Shown piece by piece: positions 51,244 to 64,000 of a stretch of 64,000 nucleotides of DNA (position 1 is the stretch's first letter; every line of letters begins with the position of its first letter). Where the stretch lies: IMG/VR virus record IMGVR_UViG_3300042473_001368; one strand, 5' to 3'. The notes beneath the pieces are model-generated. The model was given only the letters and a program-made list of their open reading frames with translations. It did not search any database and had not been told where the DNA came from. The stretch comes from a virus. The translations under genes and the position numbers were made by a program.

Positions 51244-51726
51244 ATGCGTAAATTAACATTTAGCGATTGCGAATCGCATGTAGACAAGATTTGTAAGTCG
51301 ATTGTAAAATCGCACTGGCAGCCCGACTATATTGTAGGCCTCAGTAGAGGTGGATTAGTTCCAGGAGTAATGATTAGTCATTGGCTCAATGTACCATTTA
51401 AGCCTCTTGAGGTCTCTCTCAGAGATGGTGGGTATCGTAAGAGTTCAAAGTTTCTTTCAAAAGAAGCGCAATACGGTAGAAACATTCTCATTGTCGATGA
51501 TATTAATGATTCAGGTAAAACATTTAACTGGATTATGAGTGACTGGGAGACTACAATCAGCCAAGGAGGGCATTCGCTCGAAGATGCATGGAACAACAAT
51601 GTAAGATTTGCTGTTCTCGTTAACAAGATCGAGAGTGGCTGCGATGTTAGTATTGATTACTTTGGCGCAGATAACTCATGCGACGTCTCTCCGAAAGAAT
51701 GGTATTCCTTTCCTTGGGAACTTTAA
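51244..51726 (+). CDS. Type I phosphoribosyltransferase
   Basis: IVGLSRGGLVPG, ILIVDDINDSGKT; start moved to MRKLTF because the track start lies inside a tRNA. Confidence 0.85.
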   Translation: MRKLTFSDCESHVDKICKSIVKSHWQPDYIVGLSRGGLVPGVMISHWLNVPFKPLEVSLRDGGYRKSSKFLSKEAQYGRNILIVDDINDSGKTFNWIMSDWETTISQGGHSLEDAWNNNVRFAVLVNKIESGCDVSIDYFGADNSCDVSPKEWYSFPWEL

Positions 51727-51741
51727 TATAATATCTATAAC

Positions 51742-51816
51742 GCGCGATTAGCTCAGCGGTAGAGCAGATCCTTTACACGGATAAGGTCGGCGGTTCAATC
51801 CCGTCATCGCGTACCA
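51742..51816 (+). tRNA. tRNA-Val(UAC)
   Basis: Cloverleaf, loop TTTACAC, CCA. Confidence 0.93.
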
Positions 51817-58193: not shown

Positions 58194-58211
58194 AACGAAC
58201 TTCAATAAAAT
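58194..58211 (+). promoter_or_regulatory. GAAC-N5-TAAAAT promoter
   Basis: AACGAAC TTCAA TAAAAT. Confidence 0.7.
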
Positions 58212-58222
58212 AATAATATAGA

Positions 58223-59167
58223 ATGAAAAAACAATTACATCTAAAGTGGGCCGTTAGTACAACGCAAATTTTTATCGCTAACCTCGACCCTGAATTCACA
58301 CCGGTGACTGCAGATGAAAAGTTTCATCTTGCGATCAAGCAAAGCACCTTTCTAGGCGGTGAACCATATTTGAGATTTGCTGACTACTTATCTGATGCAA
58401 CTCAAGATCCTAATGCTCAGTTGTTTATTACGCAAAGAGCAGATAGTGTTGAGGACTTTTTCAGAGTTGTAATTGCGGCTGATGCTGCACGTAGAGCCGG
58501 CTTCAAAAACATTAGTCTTGTCTTACCTTATTTCCCTGGTGCTCGTCAAGATCGTGTTTGTAATGAAGGCGAAAGCTTGACTGTTAAGGTCTATGCTGAT
58601 ATGATTAATCGTTGCAATTTTGATGCTGTGTATATCCTAACTCCTCACAGCGATGTTACGCCTGCGCTTATTGATAATGTTGAGCTCATTGACGATCTTG
58701 TCTATGCCGAAAAGGCTGTAGCTGACATCTATCAAAAAACTGGAGTGAATAGCTTTATGATTATCTGTCCAGACGCTGGAGCAGGCAAACGCATTGAAAA
58801 GATTGTCAAACATCTTAAAGCAACGTTTGCGACATTTCATAATTTTGACGTAGTCAATTGCGAGAAAGTTCGTGATCTTGCTACAGGTGAATTGCAAAGC
58901 TTTAAGGTTCATGCTGATCGTAGCCTTAATGGCTATAACTGCATTATCTTTGATGACATTGTGAGCATGGGCGGCACCTTTATTGGACTCAACGCTAAAC
59001 TTGAAGAAGCTGGCGCAGAAAAAGTCTATTTGAGTGTCTCGCACGCAGATTGTCTCAAAGGCGTAGTCAAGATGTGCTCAACCTTCGATGGCGTTTACAT
59101 CACGAATAGCCGCAAAATTGATCGAGACGGTCTTAAGAATCTCACGATTTGGCCAATTGAACTCTAA
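58223..59167 (+). CDS. Ribose-phosphate pyrophosphokinase-like (candidate Adps of NARP1)
   Basis: FLGGEPY, LPYFPGARQDR, PHSDV, CPDAGA, IIFDDIVSMGGTF. Confidence 0.85.
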   Translation: MKKQLHLKWAVSTTQIFIANLDPEFTPVTADEKFHLAIKQSTFLGGEPYLRFADYLSDATQDPNAQLFITQRADSVEDFFRVVIAADAARRAGFKNISLVLPYFPGARQDRVCNEGESLTVKVYADMINRCNFDAVYILTPHSDVTPALIDNVELIDDLVYAEKAVADIYQKTGVNSFMIICPDAGAGKRIEKIVKHLKATFATFHNFDVVNCEKVRDLATGELQSFKVHADRSLNGYNCIIFDDIVSMGGTFIGLNAKLEEAGAEKVYLSVSHADCLKGVVKMCSTFDGVYITNSRKIDRDGLKNLTIWPIEL

Positions 59168-59184
59168 ACGAACTATAATATAAT
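59167..59184 (+). promoter_or_regulatory. GAAC-N5-TATAAT promoter
   Basis: AACGAAC TATAA TATAAT. Confidence 0.75.
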
Positions 59185-59195
59185 CTACTTACAAT

Positions 59196-59519
59196 ATGAA
59201 AACAATAGCACAACAACTTAACGTTAAGTCATTTCCCTTCAGTATCGAAGATTCCAATGGTAAAGAGATTTACTGGGAGAACTCAGATGGATATTGGGAG
59301 AAGCGCGAATACAATTCTAATGGTAATTGGTTTTACTACGAGAACTCCGATGGATATTGGGAGAAGAGTGAATACGATTCTGATGGTAATCGTATTTACT
59401 TAGAGGACTCCAATGGAACAGTCATTGATAATCGTCCTAAAACAGATGTTCAGAAAGCCATTGAACTTCTTACGAAAGAAGGATTGCTGGTAGATGGTAA
59501 GATTGTCATCATCAAATAA
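59196..59519 (+). CDS. Short-repeat protein, tandem paralog A
   Basis: About 20-aa EY(D/N)S.GN..Y.ENSDGYWE repeats. Confidence 0.75.
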   Translation: MKTIAQQLNVKSFPFSIEDSNGKEIYWENSDGYWEKREYNSNGNWFYYENSDGYWEKSEYDSDGNRIYLEDSNGTVIDNRPKTDVQKAIELLTKEGLLVDGKIVIIK

Positions 59520-59520
59520 T

Positions 59521-59538
59521 AACGAACCTCAATATAAT
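59521..59538 (+). promoter_or_regulatory. GAAC-N5-TATAAT promoter
   Basis: AACGAAC CTCAA TATAAT. Confidence 0.75.
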
Positions 59539-59549
59539 TATAACATAAT

Positions 59550-59870
59550 ATGAAAACAATAGCACAACAACTCAATGTAAAGGACTTCCCGCTTATCATC
59601 AAAGATTCTAATGGTAAAGAGATTTACCGTGAGGAATCCAATGGAGGTTGGGTCAGACGCGAATACGACTCTAGCAATAGAGAGATTTACCTCGAAAACT
59701 CTGCTGGAAATTGGATTAAAAGAGAATACTCTCTCGCAGGAAGAGAAATTTACTATGAATCTTCTTTCGGAACACTCTATGATGCTCGTCCCAAGACAGA
59801 TGTTCAGAAAGCAATCGATCTTCTTACGAAAGAAGGATTGCTGGTAGATGGAAAGATCCTCAAGCAATAA
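59550..59870 (+). CDS. Short-repeat protein, tandem paralog B
   Basis: Same termini as paralog A, divergent middle. Confidence 0.75.
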   Translation: MKTIAQQLNVKDFPLIIKDSNGKEIYREESNGGWVRREYDSSNREIYLENSAGNWIKREYSLAGREIYYESSFGTLYDARPKTDVQKAIDLLTKEGLLVDGKILKQ

Positions 59871-59886
59871 CGAACCTCAACATAAT
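59869..59886 (+). promoter_or_regulatory. GAAC-N5-CATAAT promoter
   Basis: AACGAAC CTCAA CATAAT. Confidence 0.65.
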
Positions 59887-59897
59887 TAACTTACAAT

Positions 59898-60731
59898 ATG
59901 AATAATACACTAGCACCGCTACTCGTCGACGGCTATAAAGTCGACCATCGCCGTCAATATCCAAGCAACAGCAAGCTTGTCTTTAGTAACCTTACTGCGC
60001 GAGGCTCTCGTGTAGCAGGTCAAAACAAAGTAGTTCTCTTTGGCTTGCAATATTTCATCAAGCGCTATCTCATTGAAGATTGGAATCGCAACTTCTTCGA
60101 GCGACCATTGGATGAGGTAACTGCAAAATACGCACGCCGTTTGCTCGCATATCTTGGACCTAACCAGATCGGCGATCAACACATTCGTGATTTACACGCT
60201 CTTGGCCACTTGCCTCTCGAAATCTGGAGCTTGCCTGAAGGCAGTCTCGTTGATCTTCGTGTGCCAATGTTTGTTGTATGGAATACAGATTCTCGTTTCT
60301 TCTGGCTGACTAATGCTATTGAAACTCTCTTGAGCACTACGATCTGGGGACCTTGCACGAGCGCAACAACTGCATTGATGTATCGTCGAATCTTAAATCG
60401 TTGGGCTCAAAAAACTGCTCCTGAAGCGATTGACTTTGTGCCATGGCAAGGCCACGACTTCTCCTTCCGCGGCCACTTTGGTCTCGAGGCTGCATCGATG
60501 AGCGGAGCTGCTCACTTACTGAGCTTCACTGGTACTGATACATTGCCTGCTATTGATTTCCTCGAGGAATATTATGGCGCTGATGTTGAGAAAGAACTCG
60601 TCGGTGGTTCGGTTGCTGCAACAGAACACAGCGTGATGTGCATGGGTATCGGCGAGTGTGAGGTTTATTTAGATTCTCTCTCTGAAGAGAGTCTTATTGA
60701 ATTTGCTGAGAAGAACGGTTATCGTTTTTAA
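59898..60731 (+). CDS. NAMPT-like (Namat) N-terminal fragment
   Basis: VDGYKVDHRRQYP, HDFSFRG, FTGTDTLPA, ATEHSVMC then premature stop. Confidence 0.9.
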   Translation: MNNTLAPLLVDGYKVDHRRQYPSNSKLVFSNLTARGSRVAGQNKVVLFGLQYFIKRYLIEDWNRNFFERPLDEVTAKYARRLLAYLGPNQIGDQHIRDLHALGHLPLEIWSLPEGSLVDLRVPMFVVWNTDSRFFWLTNAIETLLSTTIWGPCTSATTALMYRRILNRWAQKTAPEAIDFVPWQGHDFSFRGHFGLEAASMSGAAHLLSFTGTDTLPAIDFLEEYYGADVEKELVGGSVAATEHSVMCMGIGECEVYLDSLSEESLIEFAEKNGYRF

Positions 60732-61503
60732 ATTGATTACACTCATCTTTTGACCAGTTATGCGATCGTCCCATATGTTTATTGAAATTTCCTCCATCTA
60801 AATTTTGTAATGAGCATATGGGACACGAAAGCTTAGGCCTAGCCTGAGCCCGCGCTTTAGCCCACTCTTTATTTTGACCTAGCAGCTTTGCTGCAGCGCT
60901 CATTTTCTGCTTTGTCGATTCACTATGAGATTTGCCGAGAAATGTTGGCTCTCTTGATTCTACCAGCAATTTCCCTCTATCTCCTCGCCAGAAATCTTCG
61001 TTAATTTTGTCCATCTTTAACCTAAACTCAGGAGTAGCCCATAACTCTTTCATTTTTTCTCTCCTATGTTGTCTGTATTCTTCACTTGCTTGTCGCGAAG
61101 AAACCGCTTTTGAAATCTTATTTACATGATCCTCAGAAAGCACCCTACCAATATTGCATATTATAAACGGTTTATTATTATTGTCGTGAGTATTCAAAAA
61201 ATCCTTTCTGGTACGAGCATTAACCTTTTTTAAGAATTTTGATTCAAATATACAAGCTTCAGTGTGCGTCTCAAACTGTTTGTGAATTACAATAGAAATG
61301 GGGGTAATGCCTTTATCTAAAAGATTTTTTACAGATAACGAACTACTATAATATTTAATAAACAGATCTTCAGAAGGTTTTAATTTTAACCTAATATTCG
61401 CACACCTAACACCATAGTAATATTTTAACTCACCGTCAACTTCAAACTTAAGCATATAAGTGTAACATTTAACATCATCATTTGTTTTATTAAGAACTAA
61501 CAT
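60694..61503 (-). mobile_element. GIY-YIG-type homing endonuclease inserted antisense in the NAMPT-like gene
   Basis: YTYML...YYYGVR...YYSSS; NUMOD3 SHSESTKQKMS; CPIC..H..H; late promoter 61511-61517. Confidence 0.85.
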
Positions 61504-61508
61504 ATAAT
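61491..61508 (+). promoter_or_regulatory. GAAC-N5-TATAAT promoter for NAMPT C-terminal fragment
   Basis: TAAGAAC TAACA TATAAT, overlapping the endonuclease start codon on the opposite strand. Confidence 0.6.
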
Positions 61509-61538
61509 ATTATTTATACTCCACAAGTCCAAAGTATC

Positions 61539-62375
61539 ATGAAAATAACACAAGAAAATAAAAAAGAATTCGCTGAATATTTGACATTTAAGCGATTAAT
61601 TACAGAAACATACCCAACTGGTATCGTAAGTATCGTAAGCGACACGTTTTCATTCTGGAATGTAGTCAATCCTGATGGAGGCATTTGCGCACAGCTTAAA
61701 GATTTGATTATGGCTCGTGATGGTAAGGTTGTCATTCGTCCTGACAGTGGTGATCCAGTGAAGATTGTTACTGGCTATACTGATGAAGAATGGACGGCTC
61801 TTGAATATGCTCGTAGTTATAGTGGAGGTTTGACGATGCCATCGGAACTTGAGCGTAAGGGCATGATTGTGTGCCTTTGGGAAATCTTCGGCGGTACCGA
61901 AACCAGCACTGGATATAAGCAGCTCGACTCTCACATTGGAGCAATCTATGGTGATAGCATTACTCTTGAGCGTGCAGAGGAAATCTGCCAACGCCTCGCT
62001 GATAAAGGCTTTGCATCGACTAACATTGTCTTTGGTATTGGCAGCTTTACCTATCAAGGCGCTGTAACTCCTGATGCAATTGTAACTCGCGACACCTATG
62101 GCTTTGCTGTAAAGAGCACCTATGGTGAAGTTGAGATCAACGGAGATATTGTTGGTAAAGAGATCTTCAAAGATCCTAAGACTGACAATGGTCTGAAGAA
62201 GAGTGCAAAAGGTCTGACCGCTGTCTATGAAACAGCAGATGGCTTTGAGCTCAAAGATCAAGCAACCTGGGATGAAGTTCGCAATTGCGCATTCTATCCT
62301 GTCTTCGCAAATGGCAATCAGTGTGTTGTTGAAACTCTAAGCGAGATTCGTGCTCGCCTTGCTAAAAACTTCTAA
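61539..62375 (+). CDS. NAMPT-like (Namat) C-terminal fragment
   Basis: FKRLITETYPTGIVSIVSDT, VIRPDSGDP, IYGDSIT, GIGSFTYQ, TRDT, KDPKTD...KSAKG. Confidence 0.9.
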   Translation: MKITQENKKEFAEYLTFKRLITETYPTGIVSIVSDTFSFWNVVNPDGGICAQLKDLIMARDGKVVIRPDSGDPVKIVTGYTDEEWTALEYARSYSGGLTMPSELERKGMIVCLWEIFGGTETSTGYKQLDSHIGAIYGDSITLERAEEICQRLADKGFASTNIVFGIGSFTYQGAVTPDAIVTRDTYGFAVKSTYGEVEINGDIVGKEIFKDPKTDNGLKKSAKGLTAVYETADGFELKDQATWDEVRNCAFYPVFANGNQCVVETLSEIRARLAKNF

Positions 62376-62376
62376 T

Positions 62377-62850
62377 ATGAAAAGTATTACACTATTCGCG
62401 CCAAATCTCTTAAGCGTTGATGAGATTATGCGGTATAGCAATAAGCGTAAAGTCTTTCTGGCCGGCAGCATCGAAATGGGTGCTGCCGAGCCATGGCAAG
62501 AGGAACTAGCGTCTCGCTTCGCAGATAACGATATTGTCTTTTATAACCCTCGCCGTCCTGATTGGGACAGCACATGGACTGATACAAGCGACGCATTTAA
62601 CGAGCAGGTAAACTGGGAGATGGATCACCTAGAAGAGGCTGATGAGATCATTCTCTATTTTGATCCAGCTACTAAGAGCCCGATTAGTCTATTGGAGCTT
62701 GGCTTGCATGCTGCTAGCAAAAAAGTAACGGTGTGTTGCCCTGATGGCTTTTGGCGCAAAGGTAATGTTCGTGTTGTCTGCGAGCGATACGATATACCTT
62801 TGATCCACAGCAAAGAAGAGCTCATCGATCACTTGCGCCGTGTCTGGTAA
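62377..62850 (+). CDS. Nucleoside 2-deoxyribosyltransferase-like protein
   Basis: VFLAGSI...WQ..NPRR...QVNWE...SPISLLELG; start moved to MKSITL. Confidence 0.8.
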   Translation: MKSITLFAPNLLSVDEIMRYSNKRKVFLAGSIEMGAAEPWQEELASRFADNDIVFYNPRRPDWDSTWTDTSDAFNEQVNWEMDHLEEADEIILYFDPATKSPISLLELGLHAASKKVTVCCPDGFWRKGNVRVVCERYDIPLIHSKEELIDHLRRVW

Positions 62851-62854
62851 GTAT

Positions 62855-62872
62855 AACGAACTACGATATAAT
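62855..62872 (+). promoter_or_regulatory. GAAC-N5-TATAAT promoter
   Basis: AACGAAC TACGA TATAAT. Confidence 0.75.
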
Positions 62873-62889
62873 TAAGAGTAATACAAAAT

Positions 62890-63153
62890 ATGAACATCTA
62901 CCATATCTCTCAAACTGAAAATCGCGGCTATGATACCTATAGTGATGCTGTAGTAATTGCGCCTGACGTTGAAACTGCGCGCCGTGTAAACCCCAGTGAG
63001 TACGGCGACGTCTTTATGACTGACGAGGATTGGAAATATACTTATAGCAGCTGGGCGAGCTCGCCTGAAAATGTGAGCGTGACTCTTGTCGGAGTTGCAT
63101 CTGAAAACGAAAAATCGCCTCGCGTTGTTTGCGCAAGCTTTCACGCTGGCTAA
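62890..63153 (+). CDS. Hypothetical protein
   Basis: YDTYSDAVVIA...VVCASFHAG; promoter 62855-62872. Confidence 0.65.
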   Translation: MNIYHISQTENRGYDTYSDAVVIAPDVETARRVNPSEYGDVFMTDEDWKYTYSSWASSPENVSVTLVGVASENEKSPRVVCASFHAG

Positions 63154-63164
63154 TTTACAAAATT

Positions 63165-63458
63165 ATGAAACTTGCATCTATTGAAACTATCAAAACCGTT
63201 GAGCAGCATTCAAATGCTGATGCTCTCGACATTGTAACTGTGCTTGGCTATCGCTGCATCGTTGGACGTGGTGCCTTCTCTCAAGGAGATAAGGTAGTTC
63301 TAATCCAACCTGATACTGTATTGCCTGACGAGCCATGGGCTGAAATGTTCCGTAAACGCAGCAACAGAGTGAAAGCTTGTCGTCTGCGTGGTGAATGGAG
63401 CTATTCAATAGTACTACCGTTATCAATTCTTCAAAATTACGGTGAACTTATCGAGTGA
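63165..63458 (+). CDS. N-terminal fragment of Rnl2/DRB0094-family RNA ligase
   Basis: MKLASI...HSNADAL...LGYRCIV...GDKVV...DTVLP...RVKACRLRGEWS..IVLPLS then stop; no adenylation motif. Confidence 0.65.
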   Translation: MKLASIETIKTVEQHSNADALDIVTVLGYRCIVGRGAFSQGDKVVLIQPDTVLPDEPWAEMFRKRSNRVKACRLRGEWSYSIVLPLSILQNYGELIE

Positions 63459-63498
63459 AAGCTATATGATTTTGTGGGGTGTAGTATAAATATGTTAT

Positions 63499-64000
63499 AT
63501 GAACTACACTAAGATATATAACTCACTAATAACTCAGGCAAAAAACAGACAGGTAGATATCAACCAGTATTATGAGCGACACCATATAGTACCTAAATGC
63601 TGTAACGGAGAAGATACAGAATCAAATACGGTACTTTTAACAGGTAGGGAGCATTACATTGCACATCTTTTATTGTGGAAGATGTTTCCGTCTAACAGCA
63701 AACTATTGTTTGCCTTTAGGATGATGTCGCATGCTAACAATAACGGTTTACGAACATATAAGTATAATGCTAGGTTGTACGAAGCTGCACGGCAATCACT
63801 TTCAACGTATCTTAAAACTAATAAAGAGATAGGTAAAAAGGTATCTGAAGCACTTAAAGGTAGAAAGCAAAATGCTGAGCATGTTAAAAAGCGTATGGAT
63901 AGTAGAAAACGAAACGGTAAAAAATATACCACTGAACATATCGAGAAATACCGTAACGGAACTTTACGTGCACTTGCACGGGGCTGGAAACCTAATACAA
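63499..64000 (+). mobile_element. HNH (Mob-like) homing endonuclease, partial
   Basis: YERHHIVPKC..G.D..SN.V.LT.REHYIAH.LL; TATAAATA 63485-63492; runs off window. Confidence 0.88.

Follow-up and report, generated by a model that had tools for sequence, protein, structure and literature searches.

A gene of the Namat clade of the NAMPT family is divided into two open reading frames (ORFs) in the viral DNA that we analysed, a stretch of 64,000 nucleotides (nt) from IMG/VR virus record IMGVR_UViG_3300042473_001368 (hereafter the window), and a homing endonuclease gene on the opposite strand lies between the two halves. It is probable that a mobile cassette invaded an intact gene, that the two halves (N-half and C-half) are now expressed separately and reassemble non-covalently as a working two-chain enzyme, and that the endonuclease spreads the cassette. 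The evidence comes from the anatomy of the locus, from an uncut allele on a near-identical backbone, from mapped breakpoints, from a cassette common to diverged backbones and from purifying selection on the enzyme.

A sequence-only reading of the window had described a NAMPT-like gene split by an antisense endonuclease gene that fills the gap, and the ORFs, their orientation and their coordinates were all recovered here (Table 1). The N-half and C-half match NAMPT_N/NAPRTase and phrog_448, covering profile positions 9-273 and 259-496. These profile matches, together with matches to PDB sequences, also support the identification of a NAMPT-family gene that adjoins a Prs-like gene and is split by a free-standing homing endonuclease in antisense orientation. 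The break falls directly after the EHS..CMG active-site motif, inside the catalytic core, which is conserved, and the N-half stop codon is 29 residues past the ATEHSVMC motif. The C-terminal tail of the N-half partly overlaps the 3' end of the endonuclease gene on the opposite strand (by 38 nt), and the endonuclease ORF starts 35 nt before the C-half.

Uncut alleles and the edges of the acquired block

An 86-kb contig, L025, encodes an uncut Namat protein of 531 amino acids (aa) on a backbone 93% identical to that of the window. Its DNA is 93% identical to window positions 59895-60646 and 84% identical to 61653-62375, and at the junction 91 nt take the place of the window's 1006 nt; the codons are identical up to CMG. 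Many further uncut relatives are present in IMG/VR. P0123, P0172 and P0176 are uncut proteins with N-parts nearly identical to those of three different split lineages, and the uncut alleles L025 and P0123 are 93-98% identical to the window up to CMG. Alignment with uninterrupted homologues, which the sequence-only reading had proposed as a check, was possible with these alleles, and the insertion could be mapped to the base.

The breakpoints were mapped with informative sites, L025 standing for the recipient and L005 for the donor. On the left edge, every informative site up to 60635 is L025-like and every site from 60647 is L005-like. On the right edge, 33 of the 36 informative sites from 61575 to ~61670 are L005-like, and the sequence is L025-like from ~61880. 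The breakpoints lie at 60636-60646 and at about 61670-61880, and the block between them contains a donor-type exon edge, the N-half tail, the endonuclease gene, both promoters, the C-half head and ~100 nt of donor-type exon. This block is 99.3% identical in L097, a sister phage (~92% identical overall, with 96% identity in the adjacent N-half body), and 91.6% identical in L005. The window and L005 share ~68% identity in the gene body and 86-100% over 60607-61780. In a tree of N-halves the window does not join L005 but falls among phages that carry another cassette.

To judge from these alignments, the block pattern is what homing would be expected to leave when the flanks are co-converted, and for the endonuclease gene both presence/absence polymorphism and co-converted flanks speak for mobility. 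Because uncut alleles occur on near-identical backbones, and because the breakpoints flank the whole cassette including the tail and the head, the split in the window lineage arrived together with the cassette.

Table 1. Positions in the window of the split Namat gene, its cassette and associated features
Feature	Position	Strand	Basis or description
Prs-like gene (Adps candidate)	58223..59167	+	Pfam Pribosyltran_N 1.6e-10; phrog_619 1.6e-67
Early-type promoter motif, one mismatch, 12 nt before N-half ATG	59872..59886	+	motif scan
Namat N-half	59898..60731	+	277 aa; profile and PDB-sequence matches
Acquired mobile block (co-conversion tract)	60647..61675	none	three-way informative sites
N-half acidic C-terminal tail, non-native, with stop codon	60657..60731	+	residues 254-277, net charge about -5
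GIY-YIG/NUMOD3 homing endonuclease, free-standing	60694..61503	-	269 aa
Early-type promoter motif for C-half	61494..61508	+	recurrent motif; identical copy in L005 and L097 cassettes
T4-type late promoter motif TATAAATA	61511..61518	-	8 nt upstream of endonuclease ATG
Namat C-half	61539..62375	+	278 aa; profile and PDB-sequence matches

The two halves of a Namat-clade enzyme

Among solved proteins, both halves are closest to SPbetaL1 Namat (structures 9W5X and 9W5W). Residues 6-253 of the N-half align to residues 8-253 of 9W5X (E 2e-76) and residues 13-274 of the C-half align to its residues 255-489 (E 1e-67); the two ranges together therefore leave no loss or duplication at the level of the fold. 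Canonical Nampt chains are far weaker matches, with a best E of 3e-34 for the N-half and 1.5e-13 for the C-half. The nicotinamide pocket of SPbetaL1 Namat consists of Phe189, Arg192, Asp215, Ala242, Arg306, Asp13' and Tyr15' (PMC12774641). By HMMER alignment these residues map to D11, Y13, F188, R191, D214 and A241 in the N-half and to R67 (equivalent to Arg306) in the C-half, and all of the mapped residues are kept, in columns that are invariant or nearly so among relatives. Because the pocket residues are divided 6:1 between the two chains, neither half should be active alone; the C-half also holds the clamp helix.

The clamp helix departs from the Namat motif known as the adenine 'selectivity clamp'. 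Positions 3 and 5 are aromatic, a 7-residue insert follows, and position 7 lacks an aromatic residue. The insert, at C-half residues about 173-184 (window 62055-62090), displaces the third, adenine-stacking aromatic residue; it is common to most of the phage clade, with the canonical motif found in P0182, P0194, P0206 and P0216. Because the clamp motif is altered, we file the protein on its sequence as a Namat-clade NAMPT-family enzyme with an unverified substrate. The label NARP1 Namat, given by the sequence-only reading, agrees with the best match to SPbetaL1 Namat, the pocket residues and the Prs-like partner, and does not agree with the clamp helix. A second stretch of the C-half, residues about 81-107 (61779-61860) after the KIVTGY motif, is a hypervariable, length-variable insert, occupied by unrelated sequences of 25-60 residues in the window, L025, L005 and other relatives.

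Both chains carry additional sequence at the break. The PDB alignment of the N-half ends at residue 253 and residues 254-277 form the tail, while residues 1-12 of the C-half form a non-native head that precedes the 9W5X alignment. In uncut alleles just 7 residues separate CMG from TF, so no intact protein ever contained the tail. It aligns without gaps to tails of equal length in relatives, and across cassettes the tails are net acidic (-2 to -10) and the heads neutral to basic (0 to +4).

The word EFAE is encoded on both sides of the gap with synonymous changes, as the sequence-only reading had observed; the codons are at 60699-60710 and 61566-61577 and differ by two synonymous substitutions. 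Its further proposal, that EFAE marks a recoded duplicated junction and that an intact protein would read ...SLIEFAE-YLTFKRL, did not survive the comparison with relatives, and EFAE was dropped as a candidate target-site duplication. The 7 residues of the uncut alleles are too few for this reading, the FAEYL of the head is native sequence that aligns with EYV of the solved Namat and GELL of relatives, and EFAE is shared between tail and head in 0 of the 8 other cassettes, aromatic residues replacing it in the aligned tails and the shared word being reduced to FAE in L005. A 4-residue word common to tail and head arose in 0.6% of composition-preserving shuffles (probability about 0.006). The sharing of EFAE is probably incidental. 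E-V-Y-L, which closes the native part of the N-half, also weakly resembles E-Y-L, which opens that of the C-half, a likeness that may be no more than chance.

Purifying selection is evident in both parts of the enzyme. In comparison with L025, the ratio of nonsynonymous to synonymous substitution rates (dN/dS) is 0.04 for the N-half body and 0.07 for the distal C-half. Among the 120 protein clusters that best match the C-half, about 90 have half-gene lengths, with some of the contigs reaching 216 kb; for the N-half the figure is about 35 of the best 120. Modelling the two chains as a complex, another check that the sequence-only reading had suggested, gave a predicted score of 0.90 against 0.00 for the best of three controls. 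Of 80 solved complexes 58 attain this mark, as do 2 of 110 mismatched pairs, counts that hold roughly because our own alignments were used. Separate runs agree in at least 94% of contacts, the partner has a predicted local distance difference test score of at least 90, and residues of the tail and the head lie in the interface. The prediction indicates that the halves can refold like the parent protein, which is different from binding, and it may simply reflect likeness to the solved single-chain Nampt and Namat structures.

In the model that we favour, a self-contained endonuclease cassette of ~1 kb replaced ~91 nt of the uncut gene just past the EHS..CMG codons. The cassette supplies the upstream half with an acidic tail and stop codon and the downstream half with a start codon, a short head and a putative early promoter, and its antisense GIY-YIG gene would be driven by a late promoter. 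Both halves would be made early in infection as separate polypeptides and would take up the Namat fold by non-covalent reassembly, the probable product being an (N/C)2 tetramer whose active sites combine residues of both chains. This enzyme and the Prs-like one encoded upstream would jointly rebuild nicotinamide adenine dinucleotide (NAD+) that bacterial immunity has destroyed. The endonuclease, made late, would cut uncut alleles of co-infecting relatives, and the cassette and its flanks would be copied into them.

Promoter motifs, rival cassettes and neighbouring genes

The sequence-only reading had placed an early promoter across the endonuclease ATG, back to back with a late promoter; both motifs were found, and both recur in the window. 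In the copy of GAAC-N5-TATAAT that precedes the C-half, the T that comes first is complementary to the start codon of the endonuclease. This early motif occurs in 16 exact copies, all on the + strand and within 36.8-62.9 kb. With one mismatch allowed there are 28 matches where 9.2 are expected, a number reached in 0 of 100 shuffles. Its extended consensus is TAAC-GAACT..ATATAAT, which usually ends 8-19 nt before an ATG, and one copy is found 10 nt upstream of a tRNA-like sequence (51718-51760). On the strength of this recurrence we accept the early motif as a putative transcription signal of this phage, and as a signal for transcription rather than translation because it also precedes a tRNA gene. 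The late motif lies 6-8 nt upstream of the ATG in many ORFs of the late strand, including 7 nt upstream of an HNH gene at 63499, and is present in the L093 and L009 cassettes. Spacing between promoter and ATG is very short for both (8-19 nt after the -10 element for most early genes and 6-8 nt for late genes), and a Shine-Dalgarno sequence is not obvious; many of the mRNAs may have next to no leader, or none.

The promoter motif of the C-half belongs to the acquired block and is the sole copy of the early motif in the 6.7-kb L005 locus, while in the L097 backbone the motif precedes most genes. In L010, which has sigma70-like promoters, each half has its own promoter-like site. The predicted C-half promoter travels with the mobile block, in agreement with the earlier claim that the mobile element supplies expression signals: the motif is within the block and is identical in L005 and L097.

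The endonuclease matches phrog_314, 'homing endonuclease' (3.5e-22), and NUMOD3 (24.9 bits, cutoff 20.4). A match to SegE_GIY-YIG is weak and below the curated cutoff (E 0.003, profile positions 14-111 of 123). The columns of the GIY-YIG motif (Y-x-Y, Y-Y-G-x-R, E, N) are conserved in six family members, in which a C-terminal CCHH zinc finger is also present. The best VIA match of the endonuclease model is the catalytic domain of I-TevI (Z 6.2, root-mean-square deviation 3.1 A, 86 of 92 residues), followed by other GIY-YIG domains. No match was returned by phmmer against PDB sequences, and a Foldseek search with the model returned no hit under E 0.6. Among annotated genes the closest are named 'SEG-like' and are 29% identical, and dN/dS in comparison with the L005 copy is 0.18. 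Among the cultured phages of the GenBank collection, none carried either cassette endonuclease close to a Namat gene.

The junction is a hot spot: other phages have three unrelated endonuclease families there, and every one of these endonucleases is antisense and overlaps the N-half tail. The GIY-YIG family of the window is also at the junction in L005, L097 and L093/L094, the L093/L094 copy being only 44% identical and in a different type of phage, a point in favour of endonuclease specificity. A SegE-like GIY-YIG endonuclease of 331 aa is found in L009, an HNH/EndoVII-like family in L003, L004, L010, L011/L012, L032 and L048, and a second HNH family in L007 and, truncated, in L006. In L008 the gene is split with no endonuclease at the junction; its halves are 30 nt apart and the tail and head are kept. 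The L008 C-half (L008:4362-6095) contains a Hint and LAGLIDADG intein elsewhere, at about residues 68-380, and a Cas12f/TnpB-like gene is nearby.

Two further relatives differ at or near this position. P0005, which is 78% identical, keeps the junction intact; 75 residues beyond it the gene is interrupted by a gap of 15 nt, and an antisense DUF723/MUG113 ORF overlaps the 3' end. This may be a second, different endonuclease-associated break. The Vequintavirinae Serratia ChuuTotoro and Salmonella SSBI34 (L095:2254-4041 and L096:2215-4005) gave hits that at first looked like a C-half head; they proved to be uncut 595-aa Namat proteins with a long native loop. Because this loop is ~20 residues longer exactly at the junction, the site tolerates insertions.

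The window is part of a large, distantly T4-like myovirus that encodes a tail sheath, a baseplate wedge and a large terminase. A megablast search of 58200-63200 against GenBank phages returned no match, so that collection holds no cultured close relative. The Prs-like ORF lies 731 nt upstream of the N-half. The same gene also precedes the Namat gene, whether split or uncut, in L003, L004, L006, L008, L010, L011, L093 and L097, and in L025, upstream of the uncut gene, it is 89% identical (blastn). Between the Prs-like gene and the N-half are two tandem paralogous small ORFs with internal repeats (59196-59519, 107 aa; 59550-59870, 106 aa), each with an exact early promoter motif 11 nt before its ATG. 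Neither has a Pfam or PHROG match, and L025 has unrelated DNA in this position. A nucleoside 2-deoxyribosyltransferase-like gene comes after the C-half, and a 109-aa ORF at 63129-63458 is followed by an HNH/Mob-like endonuclease gene within 63485-64000, with its start at 63499.

Alternative explanations and related systems

It is unlikely that the split is ancient and that the endonuclease merely occupies a gap between genes that were already separate. The tails of cassettes with unrelated endonucleases do share length, acidity and an acidic motif, L008 is split without an endonuclease, and the N-half tree has two large clades of split forms, all as an ancient split would predict. However, the uncut alleles L025 and P0123, so close to the window backbone, sit inside the split clades, and the breakpoints flank tail and head along with the rest of the cassette. 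L025 refutes this explanation for the window lineage, although it may hold for the origin of cassette types, for example where one endonuclease replaced another inside an older split. A split ancestral to the clade had also been read from half-length relatives; this was rejected because the length window used had excluded uncut forms of ~531 aa. Slightly less likely again is that the split gene is a decaying pseudogene in a phage that tolerates the loss of NAD+ reconstitution. The non-canonical clamp would fit with this, as would the truncated endonuclease of L006, which shows that decay occurs at the locus. Yet both halves are complete ORFs in many diverged clusters, every mapped pocket residue is kept with dN/dS at 0.04-0.07, the C-half has a promoter motif of its own, and L008 retains both ORFs without an endonuclease; the halves are also predicted to refold together, with the caveat about single-chain likeness given above.

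Splicing, whether of a group I intron or by protein trans-splicing, could in principle restore continuity, since introns and inteins commonly target such sites and the L008 C-half does carry an intein elsewhere. We consider it highly improbable for the window. An Rfam scan of 60500-61800 on both strands with E up to 1 gave no family match, and a Pfam scan of both halves gave no Hint or intein match. Moreover, the antisense endonuclease fills all but 35 nt of the gap, and each half has its own stop or start codon, in addition to the promoter motif of the C-half.

Several points weigh against the proposal of a working two-chain enzyme. The low dN/dS may largely predate the split, and the altered clamp makes it uncertain whether the substrate is ADP-ribose pyrophosphate (ADPR-PP) or phosphoribosyl pyrophosphate (PRPP). 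The tails are moderately conserved, no better than the endonucleases, so that a role in docking is tentative. All of the relatives are metagenomic contigs in which assembly chimeras could mimic mosaics, but the same combinations of cassette and backbone recur in independent assemblies.

By analogy, a working two-chain enzyme resembling NrdA-a/NrdA-b of Aeromonas phage Aeh1 remains the most likely explanation. [quoted passage not shown] At both loci each of two polypeptides holds part of the active-site residues, the break is bordered by C- and N-terminal tails that stem from the element, the endonuclease ORF lies between the pieces and RNA or protein splicing is not involved, as suggested for the window by the empty intron and intein searches. 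The enzymes differ, the window gene belonging to the Namat clade (NAD+ salvage, counter-defence), and so do the endonucleases: that of the window is of the GIY-YIG type and antisense, whereas Aeh1 mobE is an HNH endonuclease gene that is co-oriented with nrdA and overlaps nrdA-b. Unlike the Aeh1 case, the Namat split is common across many environmental phages, with uncut alleles, an endonuclease-free split and three endonuclease families at one junction, and the cassette carries a dedicated predicted promoter for the downstream half.

The locus can be compared with NARP1 (Adps and Namat) of SPbetaL1, Bas63 and Fado, in which a Prs-like gene is likewise upstream of a Namat-type gene and the nicotinamide pocket is conserved (bioRxiv 10.1101/2024.02.11.579819; PMC12774641). 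Unlike NARP1 of SPbetaL1, the window has its Namat in two pieces, with two small ORFs between it and the Prs-like gene, and the 7-residue clamp insert leaves specificity for ADPR-PP unverified. The searched text of the NARP1 papers mentions no split form (bioRxiv 10.1101/2024.02.11.579819; PMC12774641), and our literature search turned up no paper on a split Namat or NadV. Fractured genes with split inteins are similar in that they are environmental loci with a two-piece gene and an endonuclease gene between the pieces (PMC2677866). No intein halves were detected at the Namat locus, in contrast to those genes, so reassembly here must be non-covalent.

The succession of endonucleases at one position also has a parallel. 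At a T4 locus, segH and hef are said to stand in place of mobC and mobE, a finding attributed to Sandegren et al. in 2005, and there as here unrelated free-standing endonuclease genes occupy the same position in related phages. The Namat position, unlike that one, falls within coding sequence, where every cassette also has to provide two polypeptides with their ends. It is conceivable, though we think it less likely than not, that the cassettes are portable 'split-and-repair kits', each with a stop codon and acidic tail, an antisense late endonuclease, an early promoter, and a start codon and head. Insertion would then have been neutral from the first generation, three endonuclease families would have converged on the junction, the antisense layout and the charge-biased ends while replacing one another, and the tail and head would be transferable assembly peptides, in the way established for Aeh1 NrdA.

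The class of mechanism is already known from one other phage enzyme, Aeh1 nrdA. If our interpretation is correct, the Namat-clade enzyme would be a second well-documented case of an enzyme that remains in service although a free-standing homing endonuclease has broken its gene. In contrast to Aeh1 nrdA, natural intermediates are available for it: uncut alleles, the same cassette in diverged backbones, rival cassettes and an endonuclease-free split. These open the questions of how an element neutralises its own damage, whether tails act as docking peptides and why the cassettes are all antisense, and the altered adenine clamp of this clade raises a separate question of substrate. Annotators of phage metagenomes should not count 'NAMPT' ORFs of half length as broken counter-defence genes; PHROGs already contains separate N-only and C-only families. 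Were the more tentative idea of split-and-repair cassettes also true, the locus would be a natural library of interchangeable protein-reassembly tags.

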